Both the position numbers and the translations under genes were made by a program. The notes below the pieces were generated by a model. That model made no database searches. It worked only from the letters and a program-made list of their open reading frames with translations, and was not told the origin of the DNA. This document shows, piece by piece, positions 12,950 through 54,380 of a stretch of DNA of 64,000 nucleotides (its first letter is position 1; every line of letters starts with the position of its first letter). Location: the NCBI GenBank assembly GCA_951406725.2, contig OX597821.1, positions 45,074,001 to 45,138,000 of the forward strand, read 5' to 3'. The stretch comes from Octopus vulgaris. Taxonomy: Eukaryota.

Positions 12950-14040
12950 GGTTTTAGATATATTTCAGTCGTGAAAATGAACGCTCAGCTGAACAATTTG
13001 TGATCATTAGTGTTAGAAATATACGAAAGGCGATATCTACTACATTTGGAAAGGCACACTCAATATTGTCTTCTAATATAATTTTATAAAGTTCAACACG
13101 ACTGAATCTAGTTTTTCTATTTTCTCTTACCCTGAAATTATGGCGCACAAATGAACGAAACAGCTCAAGCTCAGCTGAGAAATTACTATTGAAGTCCTCG
13201 GGGTAAGTATCAATCGGGTTTTGACAATATTAAGAATAGTTCTCAGCGTTAGTAGATGTTGAAGAGGCATTACGTGGTACACCACATAGAAAAGAAAAAC
13301 TTTTCTGCCCTTTTTTTTGGATATGTCCCCTCTTTTCATCTCAGTTGCAAGTTTGTCAACAAATTCTGGGAAAGGTGGTAACACGAAAATTATCTCTAGC
13401 ATTTAGATATACTCCTGGTGCAACTCCATCATGGGGTAGCTTCTTTCTAATACGTTTACGAGTTGCAGTTGCCTTGTAATCAACATCTGGTTACATTTTC
13501 TTGGCATCTTTTTCATATTTTTCAAATTCATCTCGTGAGGTGCACGTTTGCTCTGCTAATGATACATACAGATCTGCATATATTTTAAAGTTCACATCCT
13601 CATTTTGTAGACCTTTATTTACTCTGTAAAATTTCTGCAAAATCTCTTTCCAAAAATTCAACATGATAACGAATTCTAGCTCTTGCATCTTGTCTGCAGT
13701 ATTATTTGCCTCTCTCCTAGCATCTCCCTTTTGTGACTGATCTTCAGCTATATATTCTAAAGTATCCAAAATCTCAAGGAAAGATTTCAAAATCGCTTCT
13801 GTGGCCATAGCATGTGCGTCCCATCTTGTATCGGAGAGGGATTTTTAGACACTTTCATTATTAATACGATCTGTAAGAATTTTCCACCAGTCGGCTGAAA
13901 ACAAAAATGTAGAGTAACTGTACTGTAGTGAAGTCAACAGCACTTTGGCCAACCAGATTTAATGGATGAGCTGCACAGGGAACATTTATAGCAAACTTGT
14001 TTGTTTCTAAATTTTTGCTGCATCCATTTATAACATTCAA
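12950..14040 (-). pseudogene. hAT-superfamily transposase pseudogene
   Basis: Minus-strand fragments CAAHPLNLVG, LKSLSDTRW.AH and the dimerisation domain AFPNV.DIAFRIFLTLMITNCSAERSFSRLKYI. Frameshifted. Confidence 0.85.
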
Positions 14041-14407
14041 ACAGGTTAGTAGACCACAACCCTGGATCTTCTGCCAAATTGCGATTTTCTTCATGTTTTA
14101 CAGAATTAATTAATTCATTTGCAGTAGAGGTATCAGTATCATGAGAATTTACGGGCAAAATGAGATCACTCAGATTAGTTATGAGACTTGTGCTAGATGA
14201 ACGTGCTTGTGATATCTCGGTGATTCGAATGTCTTCATAATTTGATTCTGGAGTGATCAAAGAGGTATTTGCCATATTTGTGTTGATTTCTGAAGATGGA
14301 AATTGACTTTGACCCAAAATCTGTGCTTCATCATGTTGATGTTGTGGATCTTTTGTGAATCCGTTTCATCTTAGTTCTTGGGTGTCATATCATAGCTCAA
14401 GCTTGCT

Positions 14408-15220
14408 GTGGACAAATGTACCACCATGCATTTTGGGAGGAAAAACCCAGCGCCTACCTACACTAATCTCAAAAAGTCTTCTTGTGAACGTGACCTGGGC
14501 ATTATTGTCGACAGCGATTTGCATTGGACAAAACACATTGCTAAAATTGCCAAGAAGGCTGAGGGTGTCTTGGCATCACTTACCAAGTCCTTTGTGAGCT
14601 GCTCTCTGGCTATCTATCTGAGGCTTTATATAGCTATGGTGCGGCCTCATCTGGAATTTGCACCACCGGTCTGGAACCCCTATCTTGTCCAGGGTATTAA
14701 TCGTCTGGAAACCGTTCAGCGATGTGCAACCAAAAGAATACCCTCCATCAAGTATTTGCCATATTCTGAACGTCTTACTTCCCTGGGCATGGATACATTG
14801 AAACTCCGACGTCTGGCAGCTGACTTGGCAGACACCCATGAAATTATTAACCATCTTACTAATAATAACACTTAGCACCTTTTCAAACTCCACCTGTCTA
14901 ACACCCGTGAACATGTTTACAAAGTCAGAAAACAGCACAGCTCCCATGACTTTCGGAAACATTTTTTCACGCTAAGAGTTGCTGAAGTATGGAATAAACT
15001 GCCGGCATCAGTTGTCAGTTGTCGGAGCTCTGCATCCTTCAAAACGTCCATGCTTCCTGAGATTCGCCAACACTACACTTGATTTTCTTCCCTCCATACA
15101 CCCGCAAGCATGTATCTGACTCATACACTGTTCACTTTCAAGACATTTGTATATTACTGCATATGCCTTATACGCACTTTTGACAAGATGTGGTGCACCT
15201 GAGCACTGTATACAATAATT

Positions 15221-15277
<57 letters not shown>
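14408..15277 (+). mobile_element. CR1-type LINE, 5'-truncated 3' fragment with (ATT)n tail
   Basis: MHFGRKNP...ERDLGIIVDSDL.W..HI...VRPHLEFA..VWNPYL...LETVQR.ATKRIP...YSERL...RRLAADL, then 3' UTR and (ATT)n. Confidence 0.9.
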
Positions 15278-15282
<5 letters not shown>

Positions 15283-15947
15283 CATAATACTGAAAAAATA
15301 TTTTTAGAACGTCATACGAAGGTAAAAAAAAACATAGTTTTTTTTTTTTTTTCCAAAGTTTACTTTTTTCTACATACAAAAATTGATGTATCTATGTGAA
15401 ACGCTGGTCATATGTAAGGTACAAAAAAGCAAAATTTTATTTGACAATACGGAACAAAACCAAATAAATGAAATCAAAGCAATAAACAATCGAAACAGTA
15501 AAACTAAGACTGCATAACATATCTTTGTTTATGTGAGTTTAGTTTTATATTGTATGGAAATCAGTTAAACATTTAACATGGACACCGTCTTTACATTTAG
15601 TACAACTCGTGGGAGTCATGTTGTGGCAGTGACGATATCTCAGTATTTTTTTTTATCTGGTATGAATGCAGCAATTTTTATCTTGTAATTTTCATCACAA
15701 ATCATAACAAATAATTGTTTCCTTATATATATATATATATATATAAGAGACACCCATTTATGTATTCAATATATTTATACTATATATATATATATATATA
15801 TATAGTAGTAACAGAAAAGAAGAATTTCGATTATCCCCACGTGGTGAGTTGTAATCTATATAAGAAATTAAAAAAGGAAAATACGCACACTTACATGGTT
15901 TTAATATATATATATATATATCAAAATAAGCAACAAGAATGACTCCG

Positions 15948-16042
15948 GTAATTTGGTACGATCGTTTCGTACTACATCATTTTATTAAATGTTGTAAGTA
16001 TTACAACAGATTTAAGATGCTGAGTACTCATCAGCCAATTAT
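15948..16042 (-). ncRNA. Type I hammerhead ribozyme (mirror copy of 16394-16488)
   Basis: Reverse complement of the right-arm ribozyme. TCATCAG at 16028-16034. Confidence 0.85.
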
Positions 16043-16393
16043 AGAGGTTTTCCATTAATACAAAAATTTTCAAATCAAGTGGCAACATTATAGAGAAGGT
16101 AGATATATAGACCGTAGTGGTAAGTAATCCATCTAATCTTTCGGATAAATTCATTGGTTCTGTGGATCAACAGCCATATGTATTCGTCCTTACTGTATAA
16201 GGGGATATCCTTTGGGGAAAACTCTATATTTACCTTTTTCATCCTTAAGGACGAATACATATGGCTGTTGATCCACAGAACCAATGAATTTATCCGAAGG
16301 ATTATGGATTACTTACCACTACGGTCTATATGTCTACCTTCTCTATAATGTTGTCACTTGATTTGAAAATTTTTGTATTAATGGAAAACCTCT

Positions 16394-16488
16394 ATAATTG
16401 GCTGATGAGTACTCAGCATCTTAAATCTGTTGTAATACTTACAACATTTAATAAAATGATGTAGTACGAAACGATCGTACCAAATTAC
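16394..16488 (+). ncRNA. Type I hammerhead ribozyme, canonical core
   Basis: Stem I UAAUUGG/CCAAAUUA. CUGAUGA 16402-16408. Stem II GUACU/AGUAC capped by a long hairpin. GAAA 16468-16471, palindromic CGAUCG, GUA triplet (cut after 16479). Confidence 0.85.
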
Positions 16489-16619
16489 CGGAGTCATTCT
16501 TGTTGCTTATTTTGATTATAATCACCCTACGGATTTTTATGGATAACACCATACAGAATTCTGGTGCGTCTAAATTAAGTACCATATTTATTTGAATCTA
16601 AATATTTGCTGAGCTTATT

Positions 16620-16820
16620 ATCATCATCATCATCATCATCGTTTAGCGTCCGCTTTCCATGCTGGCATGGGTTGGACGTTGCAACTGGGGTCTGGGAAGC
16701 CAGAAGGCTGCACCAGGCCCAGTCTGATCTGGCAATGTTTCTACGGCTGGATGCCCTTCCTAACGCCAACCACTCCATGAGTGTAGTGGGTGCCTTTTAC
16801 GTGCCACCTGCACAGGTGAT
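16620..16820 (-). mobile_element. SINE (family D) with (GAT)n tail
   Basis: (CAT)n-CGTTTAGCGTCCGCTTTCCATGCTGGCATGGGTTGGACG...GGCTGGATGCCCTTCCTAACGCCAACC. Related copies at ~8370-8600, 10330-10475 and 63150-63345. Confidence 0.75.
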
Positions 16821-16939
16821 ATATATATATATATATATATATAGTAGTAACAGAAAAGAAGAATTTCGATTATCCCCACGTGGTGAGTTGTAATGTATAT
16901 GAGAAATTAAAAAAGGAAAATACGCACACTTACAAAGTT

Positions 16940-16985
<46 letters not shown>

Positions 16986-17469
16986 ACCTAAAGGGAACAA
17001 GAGATACCCGTTTATATATATAATATATGTAATATATATGTAACGTATATTATGAGCAAAGAAAATGGTAAAAAAACAAAATTAGTATGACAAGTAGCGA
17101 AATTAGTTTGCTACTGACAAATTTAATAAAGAAATAATTGGAAATTTTTAAGGGTCATTAAAGGTTCAACCCAGCAGAAAAAAAAAAGTGGAAAACATCA
17201 ATTTTTTAATTTAGCATGTAATTTTTTAATATTTTGTATAGCGATACATTTAAATATACAAAATGAAAATTTTTGAATAAAAAACTTACCGTATTTTTAA
17301 AAAGTGTAAAAAATTCAAATATAATGATAAAAAAGCGAAGTGAAGAAGATAAATTGTAAACTCAATGAAGAAGGTGAAGTAAACAAGTATGAAATTATTA
17401 TGTGACTGAGGAATTTTTGTTTAGTATTCACTAATGACCAACGCATCAATCATCATATTTGATACATTG

Positions 17470-17731
17470 TTTTGTTCCTTCTCGAGCCATGCCTGGCTCA
17501 TAAGGGCCGGTTTCCCGGTTTCCTTGGCGGTCCGTCGCAGGTGAGCTGCAAGATGCAGGAGGAAAGAGTGAGAGAAAGTTGTGGCGAAAGAGTCAGCAGA
17601 AGTTCGCGATTACCTTCTGCGGGAGCCGCGTGGGGCTTAGGTGTTTCGCTCATAAACACACACATCGCCCGCTCTGAGATTCGAACCCGCGATGCGTCGA
17701 CCGCGAGTTCGCTGCTCTAAACACTAGGCCA
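17470..17731 (-). mobile_element. tRNA-derived SINE (family C)
   Basis: Minus-strand TGGCCTAGTGTTTAGAGCAGCG (A box) ... GGTTCGAATCTC (B box). Homologous to 27120-27455 and 32450-32745. Confidence 0.75.
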
Positions 17732-18489
17732 ATATTTGATACGTTGACAAAAATGATATATTTATACACATGTGAAATGATTTTATTAGATTACAAGTTT
17801 AAAATCATAAATTACAATATATATGAAGAATGTTAGAGAGAAAAATTTTGGTATAGTTTTGGAAAATCAACAAGTTTCGCAAAATGAAAATCTCTACTAA
17901 AAAAATGGTTTTTTCGTTTACAAAAATAAAATTTTTATGTGAAATAAGATTAATATTTTTACCAAAACCATAATTTAAATTTATTATAGGTTTTTTCAAG
18001 CACTTATGTTGTTTCATATTTATTTTTATACATTTTATGTCTCAAATCAGAGATAAATTGATTGATAATGATTCTTATATGAATTGGTGGCATAAATGAT
18101 ATATGAAGCAAACGATTCATTATAATTTCAATAGACGAAACACTAAATATAATGGACAAACAAAGCTGAGTGTGCTATATATTGACATGCGTGACGCGTC
18201 ATGAAATGAAGATCATCCTGAACCAGCAACAGTTTTCAACTAATCTAAGAACTTACAAGCTACCTGACACTTGCACTGATTCGAACGCATACTATACGTG
18301 TTCAAAACTTGTATAACTTCCAGCCTGTTGCACAGCGTATTTCATTTATTTATAAACAGAAATTTTTGCATTAAAATTTGAAGATGGCTATAAATTCATT
18401 TCTTCATTTCAGTAGTAAAACCAGCTATGCGGCAACCCCGCATCCATAGAAGAGGGTGAAGAGATGGCGCTCCTCTTTCCTTGATGCCT

Positions 18490-18530
18490 TAAGCACGTGC
18501 TTATTTTGCTTATAGGTTAATCCAGCACTG
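18490..18530. mobile_element. hAT-like terminal inverted repeat (right end)
   Basis: ...GCTTATAGGTTAATCCAGCACTG (reverse complement CAGTGCTGGATTAACC). Matching left TIR not found. Confidence 0.4.
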
Positions 18531-18622
18531 GGTGTCCTTCAGCAAGTCCCTTTACGTGATGTTGCTCCAATCAACTTAGCTGAAGGTAAATAGCACTAGA
18601 AGTAGCTGCAGTTAATCTTCCG

Positions 18623-18813
18623 ATGTATGTATGTATGTATGTATGTATGTATGTATGTATGTATGTATGTATGTATGTATGTATGTATGTATGTATGTAT
18701 GTATGTATGTATGTATGTATGTATGTATGTATGTATGTATGTATGTATGTATGTATGTATGTATGTATGTATGTATGTATGTATGTATGTATGTATGTAT
18801 GTATGTATGTATG
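18623..18813 (+). repeat. (ATGT)n microsatellite
   Basis: Perfect tetranucleotide array. Confidence 0.98.
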
Positions 18814-19260
18814 TACAGGGGTTGGCCAAAATAATGGAAACACCTAGCATCACAGCATCAATTTTGAAATATCTGTAAAACCGCCTAAAGCTTGTTTATT
18901 TTTATGTTTTTTGATTTTTATGTTTTTTGCATAATGTGTTTTGCTAAAATTGCTGTTTCTCTTCAGATATCATCAGAAAAAGGTAATTAAAATTCATTAA
19001 AATGACAGATCGGACTTTCAAAGAGGTCAAATTGTTGGTCCTCGTATGGCAGGCGCCAACGTAACGAAAATAGCCGAAATGTTTGGTGTATCAAGAAGTA
19101 CTGTCTCGAAAGTAATGACAGCCTTTGAGAAAGAGGGAAACATCTCCTCATCGAAACAAAACTCCGGAAAAAACCCCAAAACTTTCAGATAGGGATCACA
19201 AAAGTACCGGTCCCAAAATTATTGCAGAGCTTAATGACCACCTCTTTGATAGGAAAATTT
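18814..19260 (+). mobile_element. Tc1-like transposon left end and transposase N-terminal remnant
   Basis: TA|CAGGGGTTGGCCAAAATAATGGAAACACC terminus. Frameshifted DFQRGQIVG.RMAGANVTKIAEMFGVSRSTVSKVMTAFEKEG...PKLSDRD. Confidence 0.85.
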
Positions 19261-21581
19261 CTGTCAGTACCATCATTGCATGTGCAGACAAGGGCCTCTC
19301 TGAACCTCACTTCACCAGCTCTGCTGTGGCCCGAGACTCGCTTATTTATCCCACACTCTTCTACCTGTAAATTAACGAACTTATTACAGTTACCTTCAAC
19401 AAAACTCATTCCTCTCAACCGTAATCTTCCTCAAATATATGTAACATAGACATCTCATATTAAACATACACCATCAACAGAGACTTAGAAGGCACTCCAT
19501 AATGGGAACTCGAAAATTTTGTTTCATTCATCAATACAACGATACAGTATTTGTGCATATATTTGAAAACCTGTGATTAAAATTATATCCCACATCCCTC
19601 TCTCTTGTCTTGGACAACATGTAATTAACACTCATCAAAGTCCAGCCTTTGACCTTATCTTGGTGGGAAGGTTAAACGAGTGAGTGTCAGAACTATGCAG
19701 TTAGAGACTTCGAGTCCCTGGTAGGACCACCCAAAGCGGACAGGTCTGACGCCGGCAGTGCTAGGGCCGCAACCCGGCTAACTGGATCGCGTCTGCAGGC
19801 ATCCTGCAGCAATAAGGCGTAACACGAGGACGAACTGCTACCGATCGTGTACGGTGGCTTACGAATACAGATGGGAACAGTTTTCGCGAACTTTGATAAT
19901 CTTTTGAAACTCCTATGAACTCAAAAAGAGCTGCTTTAACCCCTGCCGGGTGAATACCTTTACAAGACTTGATGAGTTACAAGACTCATCAAGACTTAAT
20001 ATTTCTTACTTGTCCTACACCACATAACACAACAAAATTTCATCCCCAGAGATTAAGTTTCCTCTTCAGGACCATGAGATACTTCAGCTCGCATTAGCTC
20101 CTGACTCTTCAAATCTCAAGCATTAGCCATAATGGAATATTTCTTCCGTATCTAAGACGGTGCCACTGCTGATGCTGCTATACATACAAATCTTTTAGAT
20201 TACACCCAAAAGATGTAATAAGTTGGCAACGATGATCTCTATTCTTCATATTACTTCCAGTCAAACTCACCCGTCATATTTATTGCTTCTCATCCTGTTT
20301 CTCCCCTTTTAAACCCGGCACTAATTTCCATACCCAGTCCTTTCTTCGGAGGATGTCAACTTCCTACAAGTTTCTTGCTACCACTTTTTTTTTTTACTAC
20401 AGACCTCGATTTGCAAGTGTTAAAACTGAACATCAACCACGTCTATCTATAGTTTGGGAGTGAGACTTGCCAAATACAGGACACAAAATTCTTTCTTCCT
20501 CAACGAAACGTTTGTCATTAGCAGATGTTAGAACAGGTAGAGTGCCTAAACAACTATCTCCAATTCGAATCTGGCGGGATCGACTTTGATTTCAATATCT
20601 GGAGCCAATAAAATAAATACCGGTAATATTTTGGCGTTTGTTTGCCTCAGCTATGCCTCCACCAGCCTCTATAAATCGGTAAATTGTATATCCCGAGAGA
20701 TCCTTTATTTCCAAACAGGTGAACAGTTATATTAAGAATAAAACAATGCACATCAAAGTACACATACTTTCAAGTCATTTGCCGCAAAATTGGCACCTAA
20801 GCACCAAAGCTAGACACATCACTTACTGTGAAGGATGATTGACAAATCTGAATAAAACATCTGCTTTTATTCTGGTTTGATTAACTTCCTCACCACCTCA
20901 AGACAGTAGAATCTATTTCTGTTTACAATAACATAATTTAAAAATTTTAAAATAAATGTGAACTGGTGAAATATGTAAAGAACGGATGAAAGAGAATGAA
21001 TTTAATTCAAATATTGACTAGTATGGCATGTATTTGGATAATTAAAATATGATGAAGCAGTTTTTTTTTCTTTATTATAAATATGCTTGAGTTACAACAA
21101 AGTTAAATTTAGACACAAAATTTTCTTCTAATGAAAGGAAAGCTAAGATAAAAACCAATAAAATAAACAAAAACAAAATCTCCCCCAATTCCGTCTCTAC
21201 AAAACAAATAAAAGCAATATTTTAGTATCTGAATAGAACTATTGAACACGATAACCTAATTTCCAGGGAAATTTCTTGAGAAATTAAATTTAAATTTAAT
21301 TCCTCTTCCATCATATCTTTAAAGCGAAAGCTGCTGACTCTCGCTAAAAGATAAACCAAATTACAGAGGGATTATAATTTTTTTTGCTGCCAATCTATCA
21401 AATAGGATTTCGATTATCACATAAAATTTCAAACACTCATTAATCAATCACCTTTTAATATCATTATTGTTATTATTATTGTTGTTGTTATTACTATTGC
21501 TGTTGCTTTTGATGTTGTATTTATTGTTGTTGCTGTTATTATTATTATTATTATTATTATTATCATTATTATTATTATTAG

Positions 21582-21790
21582 CAAGGTGGTGAACTAGCGG
21601 AATATTTAACATGTTGGGAAAATGCTAAGCGGCATTTCTTCCGGCTTTGTGTTCAGAGTTCAAATTTCGCTGAGATCGACTTTGCCTTTGAGCACTGGGG
21701 TTGAGTACCAGTTGAGCACTGGGGTTGTTGTAATCGACTAGCCTCTCTTCCCAAATCTCAGGCCTTTGTGCCTATGATAGAATGGTTTAT
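21582..21790 (+). mobile_element. tRNA-derived SINE (family A, diverged)
   Basis: AAGGTGGTGAACTAGCGGAAT...GAGTTCAAATTTCGCTGAGATCGACTTTGCC. Confidence 0.75.
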
Positions 21791-22535
21791 TATTATTATT
21801 GAAGACGTCACAGTATCAAATATCGTGATGTGAATTGAAGCTATTGTGTTTACCGGGGATTTGTACAGTCTGTCAAGTCACAAGGACTTCAGACAGACAG
21901 TACTTTACGCAGTATGCGTGCAGTTCCAAGTAATGCCGATTTTTGCAATACACCTAAATTGTAGGGTATTTCTAAAGTTTCCAGAAGTTTATTGCGGTTG
22001 CATGGTATTGAACCCAATACTCCGATGACTACAGGGAAGCATTTATGCTTGATTCTCGAAGCTGCCATATCTTGGCGATCTCAATTCTTAGGTCTCCATA
22101 TTTATCCATCTTTTATCTTTCTTTCATGATGATATATTGATCTCCTGGCCACGTCGGTTGTTAGGCACACTTGTTTATCCCTCCTAAAGGTTACTATATT
22201 CGGCCGTCGATGCTCTAACACCTTGTCTGTTTAGAAGTCAAAATCCCAGAGGATCATTGCCTACCTCTTTTCGTCCATTACCTTTTCCGGTGTTGGTACC
22301 AAGCACCCTTTACCTCGTATCCATGCTTACGGCATTGTAGCCAGTGAAGGTTTTGGGCTACTTTGTTGTGTCTGCGCTTGTACTCTTTCTGCGCAAGAAT
22401 TTCGTAAGCACAAATAATGTGAGTCACGCTTTCGACCCTCTTCCCACACATTCTGCAGAGGTCCGTGGTACTTGTGTGGTATATATTATTTTTCGCTGAG
22501 TTGGTATTCAATGCCTGGTTCTGTGCTATTATTAT
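21790..22535 (-). mobile_element. R4/Dong-like non-LTR retrotransposon, 3' fragment (copy A)
   Basis: IIAQNQALNTNS...DLCRMCG...HIICAYEILAQKEYKRRHNKVA..LHW (CCHC knuckle and RH motif ahead of a restriction-like endonuclease). Ends in (TAA)n. Confidence 0.8.
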
Positions 22536-22561
22536 CCTCCTCCTCCTCCTCCTCCTCCTCC

Positions 22562-24905
<2,344 letters not shown>

Positions 24906-25257
24906 TGTTTAGTACAATATGACACAACTACTACGATTTATTTTATTGACTTCGGATGAATAAAATGCAGATTCGACCTTGTGTTAATTTAAATACTGAA
25001 CCATTAAAATAAAGTTTTATAATTTGTAACATTCAGCTTGTTATGGCATGTATCCGTGTGTATTACGCTGTAAATAACCTTGGATCTTAACTATGGAACT
25101 AAAATGATGACATAACGGACATTTTTTGATATAACGAAAGAATGTTATTGAAGATCTACAAATTTATTTATCGATACACAAACGAGATTTCATAAAACCT
25201 GTAATTTTACACATCCCCCACTAATGTTAGACTGATTTATAGAGAGACGTGTGTGTG

Positions 25258-25770
25258 TGTAATTCAGGATGAGTGTTGGCTTCATCACTTTGAGCCAGAA
25301 ACAAAGAGACAATCCATGCAGTGGAAACATTTCCTCCTCACTTGCACTAAAGAAGGCTATGGTCGTTTCATCTGCTGGTTAGGTGATGGCCTCAACATTT
25401 TGGGATGCAGAAGGCATTGTGCTATTTACTATTTTCAAAAGGGTACACCATCAATGGCGAGAATTATGCCAAATTGCTGAGGCAGTTACGAAAGGTTATC
25501 AAAGCCAAACGCCCAGGAAAACTGACGAATGAAGTCTTGTTTTATGAGGACAATGCTCCAGCACACAAGTCTTTAGTTTCAATGGTTACTGTGGTGCGTG
25601 ACGTTGACTTTGGGCTGGTTGATCAGTCACCTTATTCTCCTTATTTGGCCTCACCTGACTCTCATCTGTTTCCCAACCTGAAAAAAGTCTTGGCTAAGAA
25701 CCAGTATCGCAGCGGCGATGATGTCATATCTGCTGTTACTAGCAGCAGTTACTTTTGAAGTCTTCTTTGA
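25258..25770 (+). pseudogene. Mariner transposase fragment
   Basis: DECWLHHFEPETKRQSMQWKH, KGYTINGENYAKLL, EDNAPAHKS, PYSPYLASPDSHLFPNLKK. Confidence 0.9.
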
Positions 25771-27119
25771 ACAGTCCGATGTCAGTTTACCTGGAAAGAA
25801 ACAATGCAATTACAACTAAGGAGATTTAAAATTAATGCATGCTAGATTTCACAGCTCTAGCATCACTCTTTCATAGTCAACCTATGAGTTTTTGTAGCCC
25901 ACCCTCGGATGTACGCAGTGTATGCAGCAAGAATATTTGTGTAGTGTGTGTATGTGTGTGTGTGTGTGCCTACGTGTGTGTGTATTGTATGTACGTAGCA
26001 TGTATATATGTGTGTGTGTATGGACTTATGTATGGTGTGTTTGAAGGAGTGTATGGTGCATTTGAAGGGATGTGTATGTGTGTGTAACTTATGTAGCGCG
26101 TGTGTGTATAGTGTATTGTGTATGGTGCATGTATGTAGTATGCGTGTGTGTATGTGTGTTAGTATAGACTTATGTGTGGTATGTTAGAAGGAATGCATGT
26201 GTGTGTAATGTAAATGGGTAGTGTATGTGTGTAGTGTGTGTATCTATGTATGCATGTGTGTATCTATATGTGTGTTTGTATGGACGTAGTGTATTTGAAG
26301 GAATGCACGTATGGCATGTTTAGAGGGTCGTCTGTGTGTGTGTGTGTGCGTGTGTGTGTGTGTGCGTGTGTGTGTGTGCGTGTGTGTGTGTGTGCGTGTG
26401 TGTGGTATGCGTATTGATATGGTCACGTGTGTGGTGCCTTGGGAGTATCCGAGGTGTGTGAAATGAAGCGCTAAATATAACACAGTGTCTGGGTTGGTCT
26501 TTCTGATTTTATTTGAAAACTGTTTACGATATTATTGTAATGACGGAGTTTTATTTAGATATTCTCCAATAGAATGTTCTGTCAAATTAAATCAACCAAA
26601 TGAATAAGTACATAAAAGTAAGTGAAATCCAATTTAATGAAACAGTAAAACGTGTTGAAATGGAATAAATTGCTGATAAAATTGGTCTCAGCATAAAAAA
26701 AAAAAAAAAAAAAAAAGGAGGGAAAATCAATCACTCGAGAAAAAGGAGGGAAAATTAGAAAAATAAGCGAAATAGAATCTGAATATAACTTTAACAAAAT
26801 CATTGATAAACTATTCCCCTACACCATCATTAACATCTTAATCCTCAATAACCCCTTGATCATCATTGAAACAGCAGAGGCAGCAGCAGTAGCAGCAACG
26901 ACGTCGAGATCAAAGGAACTATAGAATTACTCGCAGCAACAACAACAGCACAACAAGAACAAGAAGAAGAACAACAAAATCATCAGCTGTTGCAGTAGTG
27001 ACAAGAACAACAGCTGTAACAACAATTAGAGCAGCTAAAACACTGCAGCCAATCACCACTACCACCACCAACTACACTAAAAGCATTAACAACAACAGCC
27101 ACAACAGCAACAGCAAGTG

Positions 27120-27455
27120 GAGGTGCAATGGCCCAATGGTTAGGGCAGCGGACTCGCGGTTTCGATTCCCAGACCGGGCGTTGTGTGTGTTTATTGATCG
27201 AAAACACCTAAAAGCTCCACGAGGCTCGGACAGGGGGTGGTGGTGACCCCTGTTGTATTCTTTCGCCCCAACTTTCTCTCACTCTTTCTTCCTGTTTCTT
27301 GTCCCCGACTTCCTACGCAACCGCTGAGCCTGGATGCTCACTCATCCATCCGTCGACGCTCTCGGTGTCGGGGGTTGACCTGCTTTCTCTTCTGCGGGTC
27401 TTACGAATAGCAAAGGACCACGTTTCGGACTTCTCCCACGAAGACCGCTTCGCTC
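27120..27455 (+). mobile_element. tRNA-derived SINE (family C)
   Basis: TGGCCCAATGGTTAGGGCAGCGGACTC...TTCGATTCCCAGACCGGGCGTTGTGTGTGTTTATTGA. Confidence 0.8.
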
Positions 27456-28464
27456 AACAAACAAACAAACAAACAGAAGCTTCAACATAAGCTCACAACT
27501 AGTAACAGTTGTGCAACCCTCACCTTCACCCCCACCCCACCCCACTACCACAATCATCACCCTATCACCACCACGTTCACCACTATGACGACAACGACGA
27601 CGACGACCACCACCACCACCAACAACAACAGCCGTTCAAGAATTTGGATCTGGAGATCTCCATTTCCAGCGACTTCGAGGGCCACCTCGCAGGGGTGTCG
27701 GGTGTCAACGAAGAGTCCTCGACTACAACAAGACGACCAAAGTTTTTTTTATTTTTTTCCCAAGGTCTGGAGTCTCCCGCTCCTAAGCCCTAGACCATCA
27801 CCTAATCACCCTTACCCGTCTTGTTGCTTAACAACAACAACAACAACAACAACAACAATAACAACAACAACAACAACCACCACCACCAACAACAACACAG
27901 CAACAGCAGCAACATCTACGACAGTAACAACAAAAACAATAGCAGAAACAGCGTCATCAACAGCGACGAGAACAACAACAACAACAGCAGCAACAACGTC
28001 TTGCACAAATATCATCATTAAAAATGTCTTTCCCTACACTGAAACCGCGTCAACAATTGGAAGGTCTAAATACCTAGGAAAGGCATACATCAAACAGATT
28101 TTTATAAGGAACCGTAAAACTCCAGTTTCTGAGTCGACCAGACGACAATGGTCAACATTGACAATGGCAACGTTAATTTCTAGAACTGTAAATTTGACCA
28201 AAATAAATTGTGTGATGGCAAACAGAATGGCTTTATTTACATTCCTTACTGATTGATAAACCAGGGTAGCTTTGGCAAGCTATATCTAAAACAATATAAA
28301 CTGCACGTATGATATCAGGCTTCACTGGCGACATCAAAACGTAGCCTGCTTACGCACACACACGTGCATATACATATACATGAAATGAATAAGCATGTAT
28401 GTATGTATGTATGTATGTATGTATGTATGTATGTATGTATGTGCGTATATATATATATATATAT

Positions 28465-28747
28465 CGAACACACATACACAAGGTGTGTGTTGATAGTTCG
28501 TGGATCGGCTGCGTTTTTAGGCGTAAGAGAATATACAAACACCTGAAAGTATCTCATAGGCAAGCGAGACAACTCACATCAGGTCATATAGTTATAGTTG
28601 GCGATATAGCTTGCAGCAGGCGTTTTTTGCTACGTGGCATTGATAAGTTACAACAACGACGAAACATCGATGTCTGTCGCTCCGAAAGGACTTGGTATGA
28701 ATTGTATCGCTTACCTATGAATTATTTTCAGGTGTTTTTAACACCAG

Positions 28748-28750
<3 letters not shown>
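28465..28750. mobile_element. Small fold-back hammerhead element between (TA)n tracts (arms ~28537-28585 / 28689-28737)
   Basis: AAACACCTGAAAGTATCTCATAGGCAAGCGAGACAACTCACATCAGGTC is an imperfect inverted copy of 28689-28737. Hammerhead lies between the arms. Confidence 0.7.
28634..28680 (+). ncRNA. Type I hammerhead ribozyme, U3-A8 core variant
   Basis: Stem I GUGGCA/UGUCGC (2 G.U pairs). UUGAUAA 28640-28646. Stem II GUU/GAC. GAAA 28661-28664, palindromic CAUCGAUG, GUC triplet (cut after 28674). Confidence 0.7.
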
Positions 28751-28803
<53 letters not shown>

Positions 28804-29209
28804 GTTTGACAACTCAGCACTGTCCATTTCTCAAAACAACTTGTCCGACCGTCCCATAGGCCTCCCCTTTGAGAAACACTGGTTTAACCTAAATTTGAGA
28901 CACCAGCAAAAGAAGAAATAACGATAGACTTTTTTCTATTCCAAAGAAAAACGATTTTATTCACACAAATATGCAACCGAAGAGTTTAAAGTACCAGAAA
29001 TTGATCGCATTCTCACCTGGAATCGATTTTTGTAATTTTTTCAAGACTTATACACGTCGTGATACCTTCGGTATCCGCATATCAAATTTGAGCGCAATTG
29101 GATGGAGGATGCCCGAGATCCTCGAAGACACACAGACAGATTTTATAATATATATTATATAATATATTTTATATAACGGTTTTATATATATTATATATAT
29201 ATATACATA

Positions 29210-30234
29210 TCAAAATAAGCAACAATAATATCTTCGGTAATTTGGTGCGATCGTTTCAGGCTACATCATTTTATTAAACATTGTAATATTACAACAGTTT
29301 TAAAATGTTGAGCAATCATCAGCCATTTATAGAGGTTTTCCATTAATACATATTTTCATATTAATTGATAACATTATAAAGAAGGTAGATATATAGACAG
29401 AGATGTCGATTTGAATTTTAAGAACATCAAGGTAATAGAATTTATCTTCTGACTGAAGAATATTCTTTTAGTTATTTTGAACTGCTAGAAGGTGGGGAAG
29501 TATATTCAGTTGAATGGAGACAAAAGAGGTTTTCTATTTATAGAAGTAAGGGTGAAATAAATGTCAGAAGTTATTTCTAAAGAAATTAAAGTAGAAATGG
29601 GAATATTATGCATTAGATGTTGTTTATTGCTATTTGGCAAACAGATTTTGTATCAAGAAAACTAGGTCAATGCTAGATGGTCACAATGACCATCTATATA
29701 CCAAAAAGTTATAGAGAATACAGAGATTCCTTTACACTTATATACATCAGCTTTATACTTAGCTAGTAGGTGTTGATTATTCTGATACGTTGGATTAAAG
29801 GAGAAATTATAAATCTAATATTTAATTTTGGAGAAAAATCTATCATTTATTATGAGTAGGCATAATACTCAATAACTGTGGACAAAAGTCTTATTAATAA
29901 AATGATTATATATATTAGAAAAATGGAAGAGGAGTAATCAAGATGAGTAATTTTCTTAGGTTTAGTAGAAGGTGATTCATTTTTAGGAAGAGAAGTAATA
30001 AAGAAGAGTAAATGGCTGATGATTGCTCAACATTTTAAAACTGTTGTAATACTTACAATGTTTAATAAAATGATGTAGCGTGAAACGATCGTACCAAATT
30101 ACCGAAGATATTCTTGTTGCTTATTTTAATTATAATCACCCCCATGGATTTATAAGGATAACACCATACAAAATTCTGGTGCATCTAACTTAAGTACCAT
30201 ATTCATTTGAATCTAAATTTTGCTGAACTTATAA

Positions 30235-30238
<4 letters not shown>
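29210..30238. mobile_element. Fold-back Penelope-like element, family 1 (arms 29210-29329 / 30009-30128)
   Basis: Homologous to 15921-16615 including the tail. (TA)n on both sides. The ~680-bp spacer has weak, decayed GIY-YIG-like words on the minus strand. Confidence 0.8.
30009..30101 (+). ncRNA. Type I hammerhead ribozyme (U.U at 10.1/11.1)
   Basis: CUGAUGA 30016-30022, UUGCU...AGCGU, GAAA 30082-30085, CGAUCG, GUA. The mirror copy at ~29238-29329 has GCA at the triplet. Confidence 0.7.
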
Positions 30239-32455: not shown

Positions 32456-32745
32456 CGTGATCACCGTGACCGATCAGGCTATCAGATGTTGCTACACATC
32501 GCTGGTCACAATGCACTTCACATTGTTTTAGCCTTCAAATGACGCCACCCCGCTGGCTAAGCGAGCAGGCCAACAGAAGAAAGAGTGGGAGAAAGTTGCG
32601 GCGAAAGAATACAGCAGGGATCGCCCCCCCCCCTGCCGGAGCATCGTGGAGCTTTAGGTGTTTTCGCTCAATAAACACTCACAACGCCCGGTCTGGAAAT
32701 CGAAACCGCGATCCTACAACCACGAGTCCGCTGCCCTAACCACTG
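32450..32745 (-). mobile_element. tRNA-derived SINE (family C)
   Basis: Reverse complement homologous to 27120-27300. Confidence 0.75.
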
Positions 32746-33537
32746 GTTAATAAATTACAGCAGTCAATTTACCGGTTAGAGAACATTTTTTTATTATAAT
32801 ATTATTTAAAATTGAATAAGGGTAGAAATTGATATTAATCAATTAAAACCAGTGGCCTAGCATATTAGAAAAATCCGAAGATTAAAATATTTTTTACATA
32901 CAAAATTTAAAGGACTGACCACTAAAAGTGGACAGTCAATATGTTAGATATAGACGTCAAAATCGCTATTAGCATAGTGATCAGTCCTTTAAATTTTGTA
33001 TGTAGAAAATATTTTAATCTTCGGATTTTTTTAATATGCTAGGCCACTGGTTTTAATTGATTAATATCAATTTCTACCCTTATTTAATTTTAAATAATAA
33101 TAAAAAAATGTTCTCTAACCGGTAAATTGACTGCTGTAATTTATTAACTGCAGAGTAGATTTCCGATCTCAGCGCGCCAAAGTGAAGGCATTTGAATGAT
33201 ACACATAAATATAATTTGTTGAACTATATGCGTGCGGGATTTCGGTCAAGCATTCTATATCTAGTTCTGGAAATTGTATTTGTAAACGACAGACTATGCT
33301 GATGATCTTGCAGATGCTCGCGTATACATATACGTGAATATTAACAAGTGAAACTAATTAGTACATAGGTAATCGTTTTTTGTTTCGTATATTTTCATTT
33401 GTCTTGCTTATTTTTTACACTTTGGTTTTTTGCTGAGTTTTTTCTTGAGAACACATTCTTCGTGGAAAATAACGATTTTGACGTCTATATCTAGCATATT
33501 GACTGTTCACTTTTAGTGGTCAGTCCTTTAAATTTTG

Positions 33538-33540
<3 letters not shown>
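32746..33540. mobile_element. Retrozyme-like element, family 3: inverted arm 32746-32965 plus a slightly over-unit-length ~539-nt monomer 32975-33540
   Basis: TAGTG(A/G)TCAGTCCTTTAAATTTTGTAT at 32975 and 33514. The inverted arm reads across that junction. One hammerhead, no ORF, ends in (TA)n. Confidence 0.8.
33294..33368 (+). ncRNA. Type I hammerhead ribozyme, canonical core
   Basis: Stem I CUAUG/CAUAG. CUGAUGA 33299-33305. Stem II (U)CUUG/CAAG(U). GAAA 33350-33353, palindromic CUAAUUAG, GUA (cut after 33363). Confidence 0.85.
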
Positions 33541-33610
<70 letters not shown>

Positions 33611-43998: not shown

Positions 43999-44400
43999 AA
44001 ATCAAAATAATCAACAAGGATATCCAGAGGTAATGCAGTACGATCGTTTCATGCGACTCCATTTAATTGAACAATGCAATCATTTCATTACATCAATTTA
44101 AAATGTAGAGCAATCTTCTGTTGCACAAAGACATAGAATTTAATTAAATTAGGACACAGTATAAATTTACCTAAAATCTCCAAGAGGATGCAACTGAAGT
44201 TTGCTCTACATTTTAAATTGATGTAATGAAATGATTGCATTGTTCAATTAAATGGAGTCGCATGAAACGATCGTACTGCATTACCTCTGGATATTCTTGT
44301 TGCTTATTTTGATTTTAATCACCTAATTTTGAAATAGTATGGATAATACCGTACTAAATTCTGGTGCCTCAACTTAAGTACCATATTCATCTGAATTTAT
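43999..44400. mobile_element. Fold-back Penelope-like element, diverged family 1 (arms 43999-44125 / 44189-44315)
   Basis: Inverted arms with a ~63-bp spacer. Shares TCTTGTTGCTTATTTTGATT and the AATTCTGGTGC...TAAGTACCATATT tail with the 16 kb and 30 kb copies. (TA)n flanks. Confidence 0.85.
44188..44281 (+). ncRNA. Hammerhead ribozyme, one core substitution per arm (consensus CUGAAGA)
   Basis: AUGCAA, CUGAAGU (44194-44200), UUGC...GCAU, GAAA (44264-44267), CGAUCG, UA, CUGCAU. The left arm reads CAGAAGA. Confidence 0.65.
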
Positions 44401-44407
44401 ATATATA

Positions 44408-44903: not shown

Positions 44904-45227
44904 AGTTACAGAGATGTACTTGCATAGCAAGTGACTTGATCTGAGATCGTGTGCTGGAACGAAAACAGTTGCAGCGTTGAAGGTGTTTATAAGCCATTTA
45001 AGAAACACACAAAAACCGTTAGATTCACTTCAACATTTAAATTTAATTTGTCAAAATATTTTCGTCGCTTTGAGACTGCGACCTGTTAGCACAATATTTT
45101 TGTCAGTGAACAGGTCGCGGTCTCAAAGCGACGAAAATATTTTGGCAAATTAAATTTAAATGTTGAAGTGAATGTAACGGTTTTTGTGTGTTTCTTAAAT
45201 GGCTTACAAACACCTTCCACGCTGCAA
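44904..45227. mobile_element. Fold-back hammerhead element, family 4 (arms 44969-45087 / 45109-45227)
   Basis: 119-bp inverted arms, 21-bp spacer, (TA)n on both sides. Confidence 0.85.
45099..45149 (+). ncRNA. Type I hammerhead ribozyme, G3-C8 core variant
   Basis: Stem I UUUGUCA/UGGCAAA (UGACAAA in the other arm). GUGAACA 45106-45112 plus one extra G. Stem II GUCGC/GCGAC. GAAA 45133-45136 within palindrome AAAAUAUUUU. UUU triplet. Confidence 0.65.
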
Positions 45228-47700: not shown

Positions 47701-49030
47701 ACTTATAATTTAGAGTGTGTTTTCATTCTAAGCTATTAAGTTGACTTCTAAAATTCATGTTTTTTGTGGAACGTTAACATTTTGTACCAGTGTCCTACAG
47801 ATATGTGCGTGGCAAGTAAATTCCAACTACTTGAAAGACTCAGTGAAAGAACAGAAATACAGATCATAAAGAGAAAAAATAAGAAAGTGACATTAATACA
47901 GGTCAAACAGAAATCAGCATATAGAAACAATAGAATTTGGAATTGTTTAAATTCTTATGCACAAATGAAATTATTTATAACCTCGTAAATAATGAAGAGT
48001 AATTTCAATGTAAAATTAACAGTGATAGTTAATAAGGAGTCGAAGAAACTTCAGCCAAAGATAATAAGAAACTCTACAAAGTTTCTCCTTCTTGAAAAAT
48101 CTGAGATTTGAAACCAAATTAATGATGCAACAGAAGGATTAATACTGGAGTTTAATATAATTGAAAAGGTTCATTGAATATCGACTTATTGATTTCTTAT
48201 GTCCAATCACACGAATAATTGTTACAAAGAAAAGATTAATAATTGATCTGCAGAGGGATTGATTCCTCTAAATATAATCAATAGATTATATTATATGTAG
48301 ATTAGTGAAGACAGCTGACCTATATGTCGGTGACCGATGAGCTGACCTCAAGTAAAAACAAATCAAATCTGGACTAGGAAATGTAATTTTATTTTTTGTG
48401 ACTGAGACTGTAGTGGAAGAACAGTACATATGACCTTTAGTAGTGCATCATCCAGGGCTTGTGGGAAGGAGAGAGGAAGTTATACTTGAAACAATGAGGA
48501 CTCGGTTAACGACACCTAGGGGTCAGGTGGTGTTGTTGTTAAATATAGCAAGAGATTAAGTGTATCCCCTGAGGACAGAAGCGATCCCTACATACAGAAT
48601 TTTTTGGGTGACTTTCAGTGATTTCAGGGAAATATCCTTGTTTTTTTTTTCTAGTAGATTGAATGATACTACGTAAGGGCCCTTTCATTGTTTTGTCAAA
48701 TGACACAAAGGAATTGTTCACAAAACAGAGTTAGAGATGATCAGTGTATATAAAAATAGAAGGAACGTAGTAACGCTGATTAATGAATATCGATAATATG
48801 GCTGAACCCAAATAATTCAGAGGAACGTTTCGCATGCTAAATATACATACAATAAAATATGACAAGAGTGAGGTGAAGAACTTATATTAAATGAAATTAT
48901 TCTTGAAATTAGAAGACAAAAACAACAAATAGCAGCATCAGTAGTTTCTCTCAATTTTTAAATAAAATAATCTCTTAACAGTTGTAACTTACTTTCCCAA
49001 CTGTCGAAGCATAGCTATAATATATATATG

Positions 49031-49188
<158 letters not shown>

Positions 49189-49199
49189 ATGTGTGTATA

Positions 49200-50100
49200 T
49201 GTTATTTAGAGATAGTAGTCCCCACCATCACACCATATAAAAGAATTTTGATTTAATACTTACTACTCATTTCTCTGCTACACGTGTTTCTTGAGGTTCT
49301 TTTACGGTTCCTTAATCACGCAGTGTTTTACAGGAACCTTTCTTAAAATGTAACCCCAATCATCAGGCCTCTAAATAACTTTATCATAGTTCGATACCAA
49401 ATATTATATTTTAATTTTAACAGATAAGTATGTGTAAATAGGTTACGTTACTCTTAAGTTATTAAGCTCTAATTTTTACTTTGTAAATTTTTAAATTTTA
49501 TCATTTGTAAATTTTCTTTCTGCATTTTGTCATTCGTACTTTTGTATGTCCACTTAGTTTTTTATTCGAATATATTTATTTGTCATTGCTTTCATTATTA
49601 TATCATCACAAGTATATATTTTATTTTTATTTTTACCCCTACATATTATTAATTTTATATGAATGTTTACAGACATAGGTTACGTGAGAATTTAGTTTTT
49701 GTAAATTTCTTATTTTCTATTTTTTATTTTTATTAACATAATTTGAATTAAATTATGGCTTGCACAGTAAGGTCCGGCGAACCTATTTACGCATACGCAT
49801 ACTTATCTATTAAAATTAAAATATAGTATTTGGTATCGAACTATGATAAAGTTATTTAGAGACCTGATGTTTGGGGTTACATTTTAAGAAAGGTTCCTGT
49901 AAAACACTGCATGCTTAAGGAACTGTAATAGAACCCCAAGAAACACGTGTAGCAGAGAAATGAGTTGTAAGTATTAAATTAAAATTCTTTTATATGGTGT
50001 GATGATGGAGACTACTATCTCTAAAAAACATATATATTTCCTCATGGAGAATAATTTGAACCCCTGTGATACCGGAATTTTTATTCCCTAATAAATAAAA
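49200..50100. mobile_element. Fold-back hammerhead element, family 5 (arms ~49200-49444 / 49780-50030)
   Basis: ~245-bp inverted arms, ~335-bp spacer, tail, long (TA)n on both sides. Confidence 0.85.
49267..49378 (-). ncRNA. Type I hammerhead ribozyme with long stem II
   Basis: Minus strand GC, CUGAUGA (49366-49360), UUGGGGUU...AACCUCAA, GAAA, CACGUG, UA, GC. Stem I is interrupted by an internal loop. The right-arm copy (~49852-49962) has CUGAUGU. Confidence 0.7.
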
Positions 50101-50125
50101 TAAAATATATATATATATATAATAT

Positions 50126-50208
<83 letters not shown>

Positions 50209-50346
50209 TATATTAACATACATATATATATATCTATATCTATATATATAAATATATGTTCCTCTGAAGTATTTGCTTTCAACCATATTATCGATATTCA
50301 TTAATCAGCGTTTTGTCATTTGACAAAATAATGAAGGAGCCTTTAC

Positions 50347-51806: not shown

Positions 51807-51860
<54 letters not shown>

Positions 51861-52269
51861 TATATGGGTACAAGGCGTCACAAAACGTAAACAATATGAA
51901 TTACGAAATACGTAGGCAAACTTGGGTATGCGATCATCGACAGGAACAAATGGAAAACAAGACAAGTGACATAAAGAACGACCCTTCATAAGTTGTCGGC
52001 TGTTCCTCTACTCCACATTTCGAGCAATTAACGACAAAATGAGGCTTCGAAAAACAGTTGCTCCCGCGAACCAAAATGAAATTTGGGATTTGCGGCGGAC
52101 TGTCGTTAATTGCTCGAAATGTGGAGTAGATGAACAACCGACAACTGATGAAAGGTCGTTCTTTATGTTTCTTGTCTTGTTTTCCATGTGTTTCTGTCGT
52201 TGTTCGCATACCCAAGTTTTCCTTCGTATTTCATGTAGTTTACGTTTTGTGACGTCATGTACCCATATA
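51861..52269. mobile_element. Fold-back element, family 6 (arms 51861-52036 / 52101-52269), hammerhead only partial
   Basis: ~170-bp inverted arms, 64-bp spacer. On the minus strand a GAGCAA/UUGCUC stem precedes GAAA, but there is no intact 5' core. Confidence 0.75.
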
Positions 52270-53289
52270 TACTTTCCAAGTATATTTATCTATCTATATA
52301 TACGTATGTGTGTGAATTTAGTTTTGCAAAAAGAAGAAAAAAAAGAAAGAAAATTCAATGCATTATATTTTTTTCAATAAATTTGAATCTGGATATACCA
52401 TTGAAGTTACTCATGGACCTAGAATTTCGTGTGGAAACACTTTAGAAACTGCGGGTTGAAAAGTATTTCGACGCGGAATTGTATGCCAATGGGTAACTCC
52501 TGATTATTAGCAGTTCCAAAATAATGCATACACAGACTCACACATGCATACAAATATACATAAATTAAACATAAATTAAATTGCTTAGTCATAAACTGCT
52601 GTATATTTCAGTCTCATAATATTTTCAAATAATGCAAAATTAAGGGTTTAGTTGTTAAAAAATAAAGGAATGGATTTTTTTTAGTTTTCGTTTCGGAATG
52701 AAGTTTTTAACGACAAGATCCGAATTTCAAGATATTACAATTAGAAATATGAGAAGAGAATTAGTAGGTTCCTTATAGGGTGTTTCAAATTCCAGCGGCT
52801 TTTTGAGAGGAATGAAGGTGATGGTAGAAAGAAGCCAAATGCTGGAGACACACAACATAAAGATGCAGTAGATGGCGGGGACTTCGAAAAGAAGAAAGCA
52901 ATAAATGCATGTAATGTGTTTAGGTCAAATCTAACTAAAACATTAGTAAATTGGAAAAAAAATTGAATATATTTTATGTACATATATGCATATATATGTG
53001 TGTGCATGTGTATTATTTTAGAGCTGCAAATTCGCAGGGTTTCTCATAGACATACGGTTTCATGTCGGAATACGTTTCAAAGCGTTAAAAGGTAATTTCA
53101 TTGTTTTGGCAGGTTTGTAGAATTTTAAAATTAAAATTAGAATAAAGATTATGAGTTTCGGTTTTTGAAAATTGATTTGTTTTATGTGTATTGTGTGTGA
53201 CATGTGGCGTGATGTTGTTTGCAGCATTGTGTTGTGTTGTGTGTTGCAGTGTTGCACAAAACACCACAACACCACACAACGCAACACAA

Positions 53290-54230
53290 AAAATTCACTA
53301 AACGCCAGAACGTAAGCGAGCAAGACAAACGGAAAGATACAAAATAAAATGATTAATCACAAACCCGGTTTCATTGTTACCACTTACGTAATGCTTATGT
53401 AAATGTCCGCAATTCATCAGTGTGATCGTCATTGCAAAATATAAATTGAAGAACTATACACGAGACGTCCGCATGAGATTGAACATGCATATAGTTCTAC
53501 CAATTACATTTGGGATTTATTTCAAAAATCTTCGTTTTGGCGCGCCAAAATGTGGGAAAAGATTCTGCAGAAAATAATTCTCTGCGGAGAATTTTGCCGG
53601 TTTGAGAACATGGTTATTTAAATTTAAATAATAAGGGTGAGAAATTGAATATTAATTTGATTAATATCAATTTAAAGCCAGTGACCTAGCAGACTGAAAA
53701 ATCTGAAGATTCAGAAAAATTATATTACATACATATAAGGGGGATGACCACAAAGTGGACGTCCATTATACTAGAGTTAGACCCCATATGGTCTGACCAC
53801 TAAGAAAAGATTGTTCTCAAGAATATTCAGCAAACGCCAGAACGTAAGCGAGCAAGGCAAATGAATATAAAGATTAATCACAAACCCGGTTTCATTGTTA
53901 CTACTTACGTAAATGTCCGCAATTAATCTTTAATTAATCTTTATATTTTGTATCTTTATATGTTTTATCTTTATATTCATTTGTCTTGTTCGCTTACGTT
54001 CTGGTGTTTGCTGAATTTTCTTGAGAACAATCTTTGGTGTTCTGGTGTTCTTGAGAACAATCTTTTCTTAATGGTCAGACCATATTGGGTCTACTTCTAG
54101 CATAATGGATGTCTACTTAGTGGTCATCCCTCTTATATGTATGTAATATAATTTTTCTAAATCTTCAGATTTTTCAATATGCTAGGCCACTGGTTTTAAA
54201 TTGATATTAAATTAATATTCAATTTTTCAC

Positions 54231-54235
<5 letters not shown>
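53290..54235. mobile_element. Retrozyme-like element, family 3: ~1.2 tandem monomers (period 532) on the minus strand plus an inverted arm ~53926-54235
   Basis: AAACGCCAGAACGTAAGCGAGCAAG at 53300 and 53832. Shares ATATGCTAGGCCACTGGTTTTAA, GCGCGCCAAA and TTTCTTGAGAACA with 32746-33540. Ends in (TA)n. Confidence 0.85.
53356..53426 (-). ncRNA. Type I hammerhead ribozyme, canonical core
   Basis: Minus strand AUCACA, CUGAUGA (53420-53414), AUUG...CAAU, GAAA, CCGG, GUU, UGUGAU. Perfect 6-bp stem I. The second tandem copy (~53877-53924) is truncated at the core. Confidence 0.85.
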
Positions 54236-54322
<87 letters not shown>

Positions 54323-54380
54323 GCGTGTGTGTGTGTGTGAGTGTGTGCGTCCGTGTATGTGTCTGAATTTATATATATGA

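Follow-up and report, generated by a model that had tools for sequence, protein, structure and literature searches.

The element at 53290..54236 of the window (the whole 64,000-nt stretch of Octopus vulgaris DNA analysed here, contig OX597821.1, positions 45,074,001 to 45,138,000) is probably a decayed insertion of a high-copy, protein-less, non-autonomous Penelope-like element (PLE) of 520-540 nt, that is, a non-LTR retrozyme copied by borrowed PLE enzymes. A closed colinear ring with no room for a reading frame is present in two copies that are 72-73% identical, this one and a sister at 33 kb. Both window copies consist of a partial tandem with a 5'-truncated, head-to-head inverted copy. Anatomy, homology, hammerhead motif, copy abundance, microsatellite ends and strand-switch joints are direct observations on the DNA. 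The element contains no reverse transcriptase (RT) plus GIY-YIG frame and is not an autonomous PLE; by analogy, an autonomous PLE elsewhere in the genome would be the likely source of the RT and the nuclease. PLEs have been reported in Octopus vulgaris (PMC13282606), and the window itself is AT-rich DNA of animal type, dense in microsatellites, in which there are transposon fragments but no gene frame of any length.

The two elements and their monomer

The sense arm of the 53-kb element (53290..53925, minus strand, 636 nt) corresponds to about 1.2 units of a non-coding monomer of 521-532 nt. It begins within a second hammerhead core, passes two cleavage sites and ends at +72 after the second site crossed; the full monomer, from cleavage site to cleavage site, is found at 53362..53882 (minus strand, 521 nt). 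An inverted 5'-truncated copy (53926..54236, plus strand) is joined to it head-to-head, with the arms meeting at their 5' ends. This inverted arm covers the monomer from about +6 to about +252, counted from the cleavage site, and ends in (TA)n. The right end of the element adjoins a (TA)n and then (TG)n microsatellite (54234..54362), which is its likely target site. On the left it is flanked by a TG/CA-rich, low-complexity foldback (53190..53289) without homology to the monomer; this could be due to stutter synthesis at the start of copying, or could be an old microsatellite. The TGGTGTT motifs of the foldback resemble those in a 30-nt duplication of the inverted arm.

An initial annotation of this DNA had assigned the element a period of 532 (53300 to 53832), and this is the distance between its AAACGCCAGA markers. 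Other landmarks give 521 (cleavage site to cleavage site) and 510 (stem II); two 11-nt indels between the copies account for the differences. The GC content is about 34% in the 1-kb bin of the element. The longest reading frames on the closed rings have 65 codons (53-kb monomer) and 62 codons (33-kb monomer). The anole PLE has a reading frame that starts at the AUG of its hammerhead core; the corresponding frame stays open for some 40-50 codons in the 53-kb copy, is closed in the sister, and was rejected as not conserved.

The two arms are 91% alike (230/252 pairs), and at 12 of the 13 listed positions where the sense arm differs, the inverted arm carries the letter of the family majority in public contigs. 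The 9% difference and the majority letters in the inverted arm thus point to independently decayed family copies, not to a chimeric read.

The sister follows the same plan, with 1.05 instead of 1.2 units. Its sense arm (32975..33543, plus strand, period 539) ends in (TA)n, and its inverted head-to-head arm (32746..32970, minus strand) is 97% identical to the sense arm (214/220 pairs). Copies of a tRNA-type SINE are found in the window at 27120-27296 and 32572-32746. The latter adjoins the outer end of the sister's inverted arm and lacks its first ~13 nt; in consequence, the inserted element may originally have ended elsewhere on this side.

When both monomers are rotated to the cleavage site, they are colinear, with 351 of 479 pairs identical (73.3%) and a score of 298, as against a mean of 35 and a maximum of 51 in 200 dinucleotide shuffles; global alignment gives 360/498 identical pairs. 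This confirms that the two belong to one family of about 535 nt with colinear blocks and hammerheads at the homologous position (53427-53355 on the minus strand, 33292-33370 on the plus strand), as had been proposed. The best conserved part between the two is +200 to +268, with 90-96% at +211 to +270. The 53-kb unit had also been called differently permuted. Its start and end points do differ from those of the sister, but no special cause of permutation is needed: copying of a head-to-tail template that starts at more than one 3' point and is truncated to a varying degree at the 5' end, as PLEs do it, gives such differences.

Hammerhead motifs and their folding

A complete type I hammerhead motif lies at 53355..53427 on the minus strand, with a predicted cut between 53362 and 53361. 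It consists of stem I (GAUCACA/UGUGAUU), the CUGAUGA box, stem II (AUUG/CAAU plus a 7-bp hairpin), GAAA, and a near-palindromic stem III (ACCGGGU) with a central G.G; the triplet is GUU. Local pair probabilities of stems I and II are 0.85-0.95. The sister motif (33292..33370, plus strand, predicted cut after 33363) has stem I CUAUG/CAUAG, stem II CUUG/CAAG with a U.U at its base, the triplet GUA, and ACUAAUUAGU, a perfect palindrome, as stem III. Stem and triplet sequences agree with those written down initially. A second, incomplete hammerhead of the 53-kb element (53876..53925, minus strand) is broken off in its CUGAUGA box and lacks 11 nt of the stem II extension.

The motifs were found with a descriptor that was written with them in mind; it matches four times in the window and once in all of 60 block-shuffled windows. 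No hammerhead family of Rfam reaches its gathering score in the window (0 hits), and none is among the 56 hits at E<=10 in 53200-54300. RNAalifold, run on the two monomers, recovers stems I and II unaided. It also recovers a long hairpin just upstream of the hammerhead (53437..53511, minus strand), predicted in both monomers; this hairpin is unrelated to the ribozyme and is conserved as well. When 4 sequences of the unit's 3' part were folded to a consensus, a single 5-bp helix without covariation resulted.

The hammerhead had been described as fully re-sequenced, which is overstated. From the 53-kb copy to the sister, the stem I pairs change as AU>GC, CG>UA, AU=AU, CG>UA and UA>CG, so that four of five are altered on both sides and still pair. 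Eight of ten stem I bases differ, compared to a background of 27% (binomial 0.0007, a test chosen after seeing the data). MAFFT places stem I out of register, and for this reason pairs were counted by anchoring on the core. In stem II, on the other hand, three of four pairs are unchanged: there is one AU>CG change at its base and an additional U.U in the sister, and both stems are extended by a further hairpin. The invariant core and the first stem III pair are unchanged too. The rest of stem III differs in sequence and length but is self-complementary in both copies, with a helix III palindrome of 7-10 nt. Homodimers of ACCGGGU and ACUAAUUAGU are predicted at -8.1 and -9.0 kcal/mol, and the mixed pair at -0.3 kcal/mol. 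This self-complementarity, which had been overlooked, marks the dimer-type hammerhead known from PLEs.

Public contigs bear on the same motif. The core and stems I and III of the 53-kb copy hold none of the best 40 of 285 variant positions. In 3 contigs of the DNA run X1 a base is missing at 53367, a variant that would turn stem III into a perfect palindrome, and the majority letters at 53393 and 53398 would, by inspection, lengthen the stem II hairpin.

Conserved pairing with changed sequence had been taken as a sign of selection on self-cleavage. The comparison of these two sequences supports selection on the hammerhead fold; that selection acts on cleavage itself is a further step that we infer from them. 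GUU is a weak hammerhead triplet. The G10.1-C11.1 pair is absent from both motifs (A-U in the 53-kb copy, C-G after the U.U in the sister), and the sister alone has an extra base between positions 9 and 10.1. The circular MFE structure, another proposed check, contains the hammerhead in the 33-kb monomer but not in the 53-kb monomer. The missing G10.1-C11.1 pair, the GUU triplet, the lack of an Rfam match and the circular MFE fold without the motif argue against strong activity. In PLE hammerheads the G10.1-C11.1 pair is highly conserved, although both this pair and the extra base are consensus tendencies and not absolute rules (PMC4209133).

Family copies, joints and ends

Parts of the stretch occur in 20 public runs under four organism labels. 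In two public DNA runs, 3,958 and 3,665 contigs match 53285-53930 at 80% likeness. The summed depth in run X1 ranges in the inner bins from ~7,000 to 1,000,000, compared to 30-65 for single long pieces; although depth is not a copy number, this indicates hundreds to many thousands of family copies. Only 1% of the matching DNA contigs continue into unlike sequence. In two further runs, presumed to be RNA, 235 and 31 contigs match, and their profile resembles that of the DNA runs. Exact-pattern scans gave no match in metagenome contigs and none in viral contigs; the single prokaryotic match was discarded as a 21-nt chance match without further similarity.

Depth is maximal at 53637-53680, next to microsatellite-flanked loose ends: at 53615-53630, ends with a (TA)n/(CA)n consensus are carried by 31, 31, 36, 14 and 3 contigs (among the best 24 of 738). 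The position of the depth peak beside these ends argues for a favoured 3' end of the family at +253 to +268, in line with +252, where the inverted arm has its outer end. In X1, depth also falls four- to eightfold across the cut (from ~108,000-123,000 to 14,000-30,000), a fall which could also arise because this region varies between subfamilies. 'Skip' joints were excluded, as diverged hammerheads would mimic them.

In the window, four element ends can be read, at +72, +158, +252 and +313 in the numbering of the 53-kb monomer. Two of the four lie at (TA)n, and no target-site duplication is readable in the microsatellite flanks. This spread over four places counts against the PLE reading, as the anole PLE has two starts that are more firmly fixed.

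The arms of the 53-kb element are joined at ~53925, inside the CUGAUGA box of the second hammerhead, where TTCATC/TTAATC form a 5/6 microhomology. In the sister, the arms meet ~106 and ~151 nt downstream of cleavage. Mapping of breakpoints relative to the ribozyme, which had been recommended, thus places the inversion at the second hammerhead core in the 53-kb copy, as initially claimed, but outside it in the sister. In the public contigs, at least 7 of 54 joints switch strand (7 among the 15 listed), at scattered positions. These strand-switch joints make inverted arms a trait of the family, and their scatter, together with the sister, argues that the breakpoint is not tied to the hammerhead.

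Short slippage duplications had also been noted at the joint, and the duplications are real: ATCTTTA is present four times at 53926-53975 (TRF period 15 at 53937-53977), and 30 nt are duplicated at 54020-54065. The 15-nt unit is nevertheless not specific to the joint; it is also present in the left copy and in the loose-end consensus of 23 contigs, so not all duplications were made at the junction.

It is conceivable, if doubtful, that these elements record in vivo the 5' ends of PLE templates set by hammerhead cleavage, and that subfamilies are kept apart by private stem I/III codes which do not cross-pair. The inverted arm of the 53-kb element stops ~6 nt short of the cut. Of 16 inversion ends, 3 are no more than 6 nt away from it (0.4 expected if uniform) and 6 no more than 25 nt (1.6 expected), a hint that they cluster at the cleavage site. 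The 16 ends are 14 from the seven strand-switch joints (15 of 54 joints being listed) and the two of the 53-kb element; the sister's two ends were left out, and with them the counts are 3/18 and 6/18. This comparison assumes the side of each joint, and truncation is not uniform. The fall in depth across the cut is a further lead. As for the codes, eight of ten stem I bases differ, as described above, and stem III homodimers are predicted at -8 to -10 kcal/mol, compared to -1.4 to +1.0 for mixed pairs. If true, the cleavage footprint and the private codes would answer what PLE hammerheads do. In any case, the thousands of family copies are a ready data set on whether hammerhead cleavage matters in PLE transposition.

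Proposed mechanism, alternatives and known systems

We infer transcription, cleavage, the enzyme and two-ended priming from the DNA, by analogy with PLEs, as follows. Head-to-tail copies would be transcribed into multimeric RNA, in which neighbouring hammerheads would pair via their palindromic stem III and cut slowly. As a result of slow cutting, the RNA pool would hold uncut multimers as well as molecules with the cut site as their 5' end. The borrowed enzyme would then nick a target of AT-rich or microsatellite DNA on both strands and prime one cDNA from each. One cDNA would have extended for 636 nt, passing two sites left uncut before it ended in the second hammerhead; the other would have begun at the start favoured by the family (+252) and run to about +6. 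Joining of both cDNA ends via the 6-nt microhomology would give the head-to-head inverted structure. Alternatively, the inversion may come from snap-back of one cDNA, and the DNA does not separate this from two-ended priming. The 53-kb and 33-kb loci themselves are dead-end products.

Each step has a counterpart in the PLE literature. Insertions as a partial tandem plus an inverted 5'-truncated copy, with a bias for microsatellites, have been described (PMC8557442); head-to-head is the usual orientation, with microhomology junctions and mobilisation in trans via pseudo-LTRs, and inversions are there explained by a self-priming model (PMC3846280). At AT-rich sites, a purified PLE protein cuts the two target strands and extends each of them, with an internal start which, by our own subtraction, lies ~85-92 nt behind the hammerhead cut (PMC11167929). 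Against the proposed mechanism, insertion of this anole PLE in vitro did not need cleavage, and no RNA-seq ends mapped to the cleavage site. Minimal PLE hammerheads are highly variable and of dimer type, with a palindromic helix III, and dual motifs occur 100-700 bp apart on opposite strands (PMC4209133).

A different template, namely a ligated circular monomer RNA copied for more than one round by a borrowed RT, is unlikely. It would fit copies longer than one unit (1.2 and 1.05) with different ends, animal retrozymes are expressed as circles (PMC7229834), and both monomers fold better as circles than their shuffles do (z -3.5 and -4.7, 40 shuffles each). However, antisense strands and linear forms are equally well folded (z -3.6 to -5.6), so that the fold does not favour a circle; a tandem linear RNA yields the same DNA anatomy, and an inverted arm that stops ~6 nt short of the cut is better explained by a linear 5' end.

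Still less probable is that the copies are no independent short element but 5'-truncated pseudo-LTR pieces of an autonomous PLE. Truncated PLEs have been named as the source of most minimal hammerheads in animal genomes (PMC4209133), and the loose ends were judged from the best 24 of 738, which leaves room for a continuation into a coding part; against this, both copies cross the end-to-start junction colinearly, the same sequence returns after 521-539 nt, and few DNA contigs (the 1% above) run on into unlike sequence. A DNA-level foldback, a satellite or Helitron/MITE-type repeat with a relic or chance hammerhead, or an assembly artefact is largely refuted and must be considered very improbable. 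The window does hold other foldbacks without a hammerhead (44969-45227, 49011-50243 and 51831-52302), but the descriptor count in shuffled windows and the compensatory stem I changes speak against such an origin, as does the absence of fixed terminal inverted repeats, with one favoured end and the others scattered (among the ends and joints listed). Moreover, arms that differ by 9% through independent mutations are unlike a chimeric read.

Read as a non-autonomous PLE, the element can be compared with two described groups: (i) non-LTR retrozymes, with which it shares a tandem unit that is AT-rich, codes for no protein and has one type I hammerhead (PMC7229834; bioRxiv 10.64898/2026.07.22.740005), as well as many dispersed copies; and (ii) PLEs with pseudo-LTR hammerheads, with which it shares the partial tandem, 5' truncation and head-to-head inversion (PMC4209133, PMC8557442, PMC3846280, PMC11167929), the AT/microsatellite target, the palindromic helix III, and hammerhead variability within one genome with compensatory changes. 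Its weak palindromic helix III is also shared with salamander satellite 2. The descriptor found the retrozyme-type arrangement of a hammerhead at 53427-53355 and a surviving half one unit on. Nevertheless, two complete hammerheads are expected of retrozymes, whereas each locus carries one. The length lies within the 51-972 bp of Li, Clavereau and Pollet (bioRxiv 10.64898/2026.07.22.740005) but exceeds the 150-450 bp of Cervera and de la Pena 2020 (PMC7229834). Retrozymes have a canonical stem II of 4 bp and a loop, whereas here it is long and extended, with 41-44 nt inside; circles and cleavage are reported for retrozymes, while the element is known here from its DNA. The main text of PMC7229834 does not use the word 'inverted', in contrast to the head-to-head arm seen here.

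Differences from PLEs are the lack of their RT/GIY-YIG frame and of the G10.1-C11.1 pair, the helix III palindrome of 7-10 nt, unlike PLE hammerheads as described in those articles, and several 3' ends over 250 nt instead of two starts separated by 30-40 nt. MRC1 and other non-autonomous Chlamys elements (PMC8557442) are likewise non-coding PLE derivatives with pseudo-LTRs and head-to-tail insertions; they belong to green algae and to the N-terminal-endonuclease clade, mostly lack hammerheads, and are compared here by description only.

PLEs have been named as candidate mobilisers of circular retrozyme RNAs (PMC7229834), and retrozymes have been linked by phylogeny to PLE pseudo-LTRs (bioRxiv 2026.07.22.740005); in the latter work, one of 9 Xenopus retrozyme dimers cleaved in vitro and the other 8 did not, which also counts against the proposed mechanism. 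The 2026 proposal that PLEs move animal retrozymes gains structural support here that does not depend on phylogeny: an ORF-less, retrozyme-type unit carries the complete signature of PLE insertion, with inverted arm, microsatellite target and 5' truncation. The value is modest and the surprise for a specialist small: hammerheads in PLE-type repeats, their within-genome variability and compensatory changes are already published, while the initial annotation named no known class. In giant squid, 235 hammerhead matches have been reported (PMC6962438). Literature searches found no such family described for an octopus-like genome, and the supplementary lists of PMC7229834, PMC4209133 and the bioRxiv article may carry it.

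Other features of the window were recorded. A second, unrelated hammerhead family (15915-16621, 29209-29398, 30009-30235 and 44000-44402) has stem III ACGAUCGU and ~59 nt inside stem II. Its arms are head-to-head and have two recurring ends next to microsatellites, at ~+37 and at +127 to +142 relative to the cut, and in three arms (30 kb and both at 44 kb) the 5' end lies just before the core. A third hammerhead family was rejected as a relative, with no alignment to the 53/33-kb monomers (scores 34-35, shuffle means 34-37). The three foldbacks named above adjoin TA tracts, contain no hammerhead by the descriptors, and are possibly other PLE-type insertions.

Among the 65 of 144 window frames of at least 80 aa that were covered, none has GIY-YIG, so that no autonomous partner was found there, which counts against the main reading. 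A broken reverse transcriptase at 23178-24624 (minus strand; RVT_1 E 3e-15) is LINE-like; its RVT_1 match at 23797-24624, with a weak zf-RVT behind it, was rejected as a partner as it looks LINE-type. The stretches 21787-22526 and 22652-23405 are a direct duplication. Finally, 11926-12219 (plus strand) has a weak 7tm_1 match below the curated cut-off and may be an exon or a fragment of a receptor gene.
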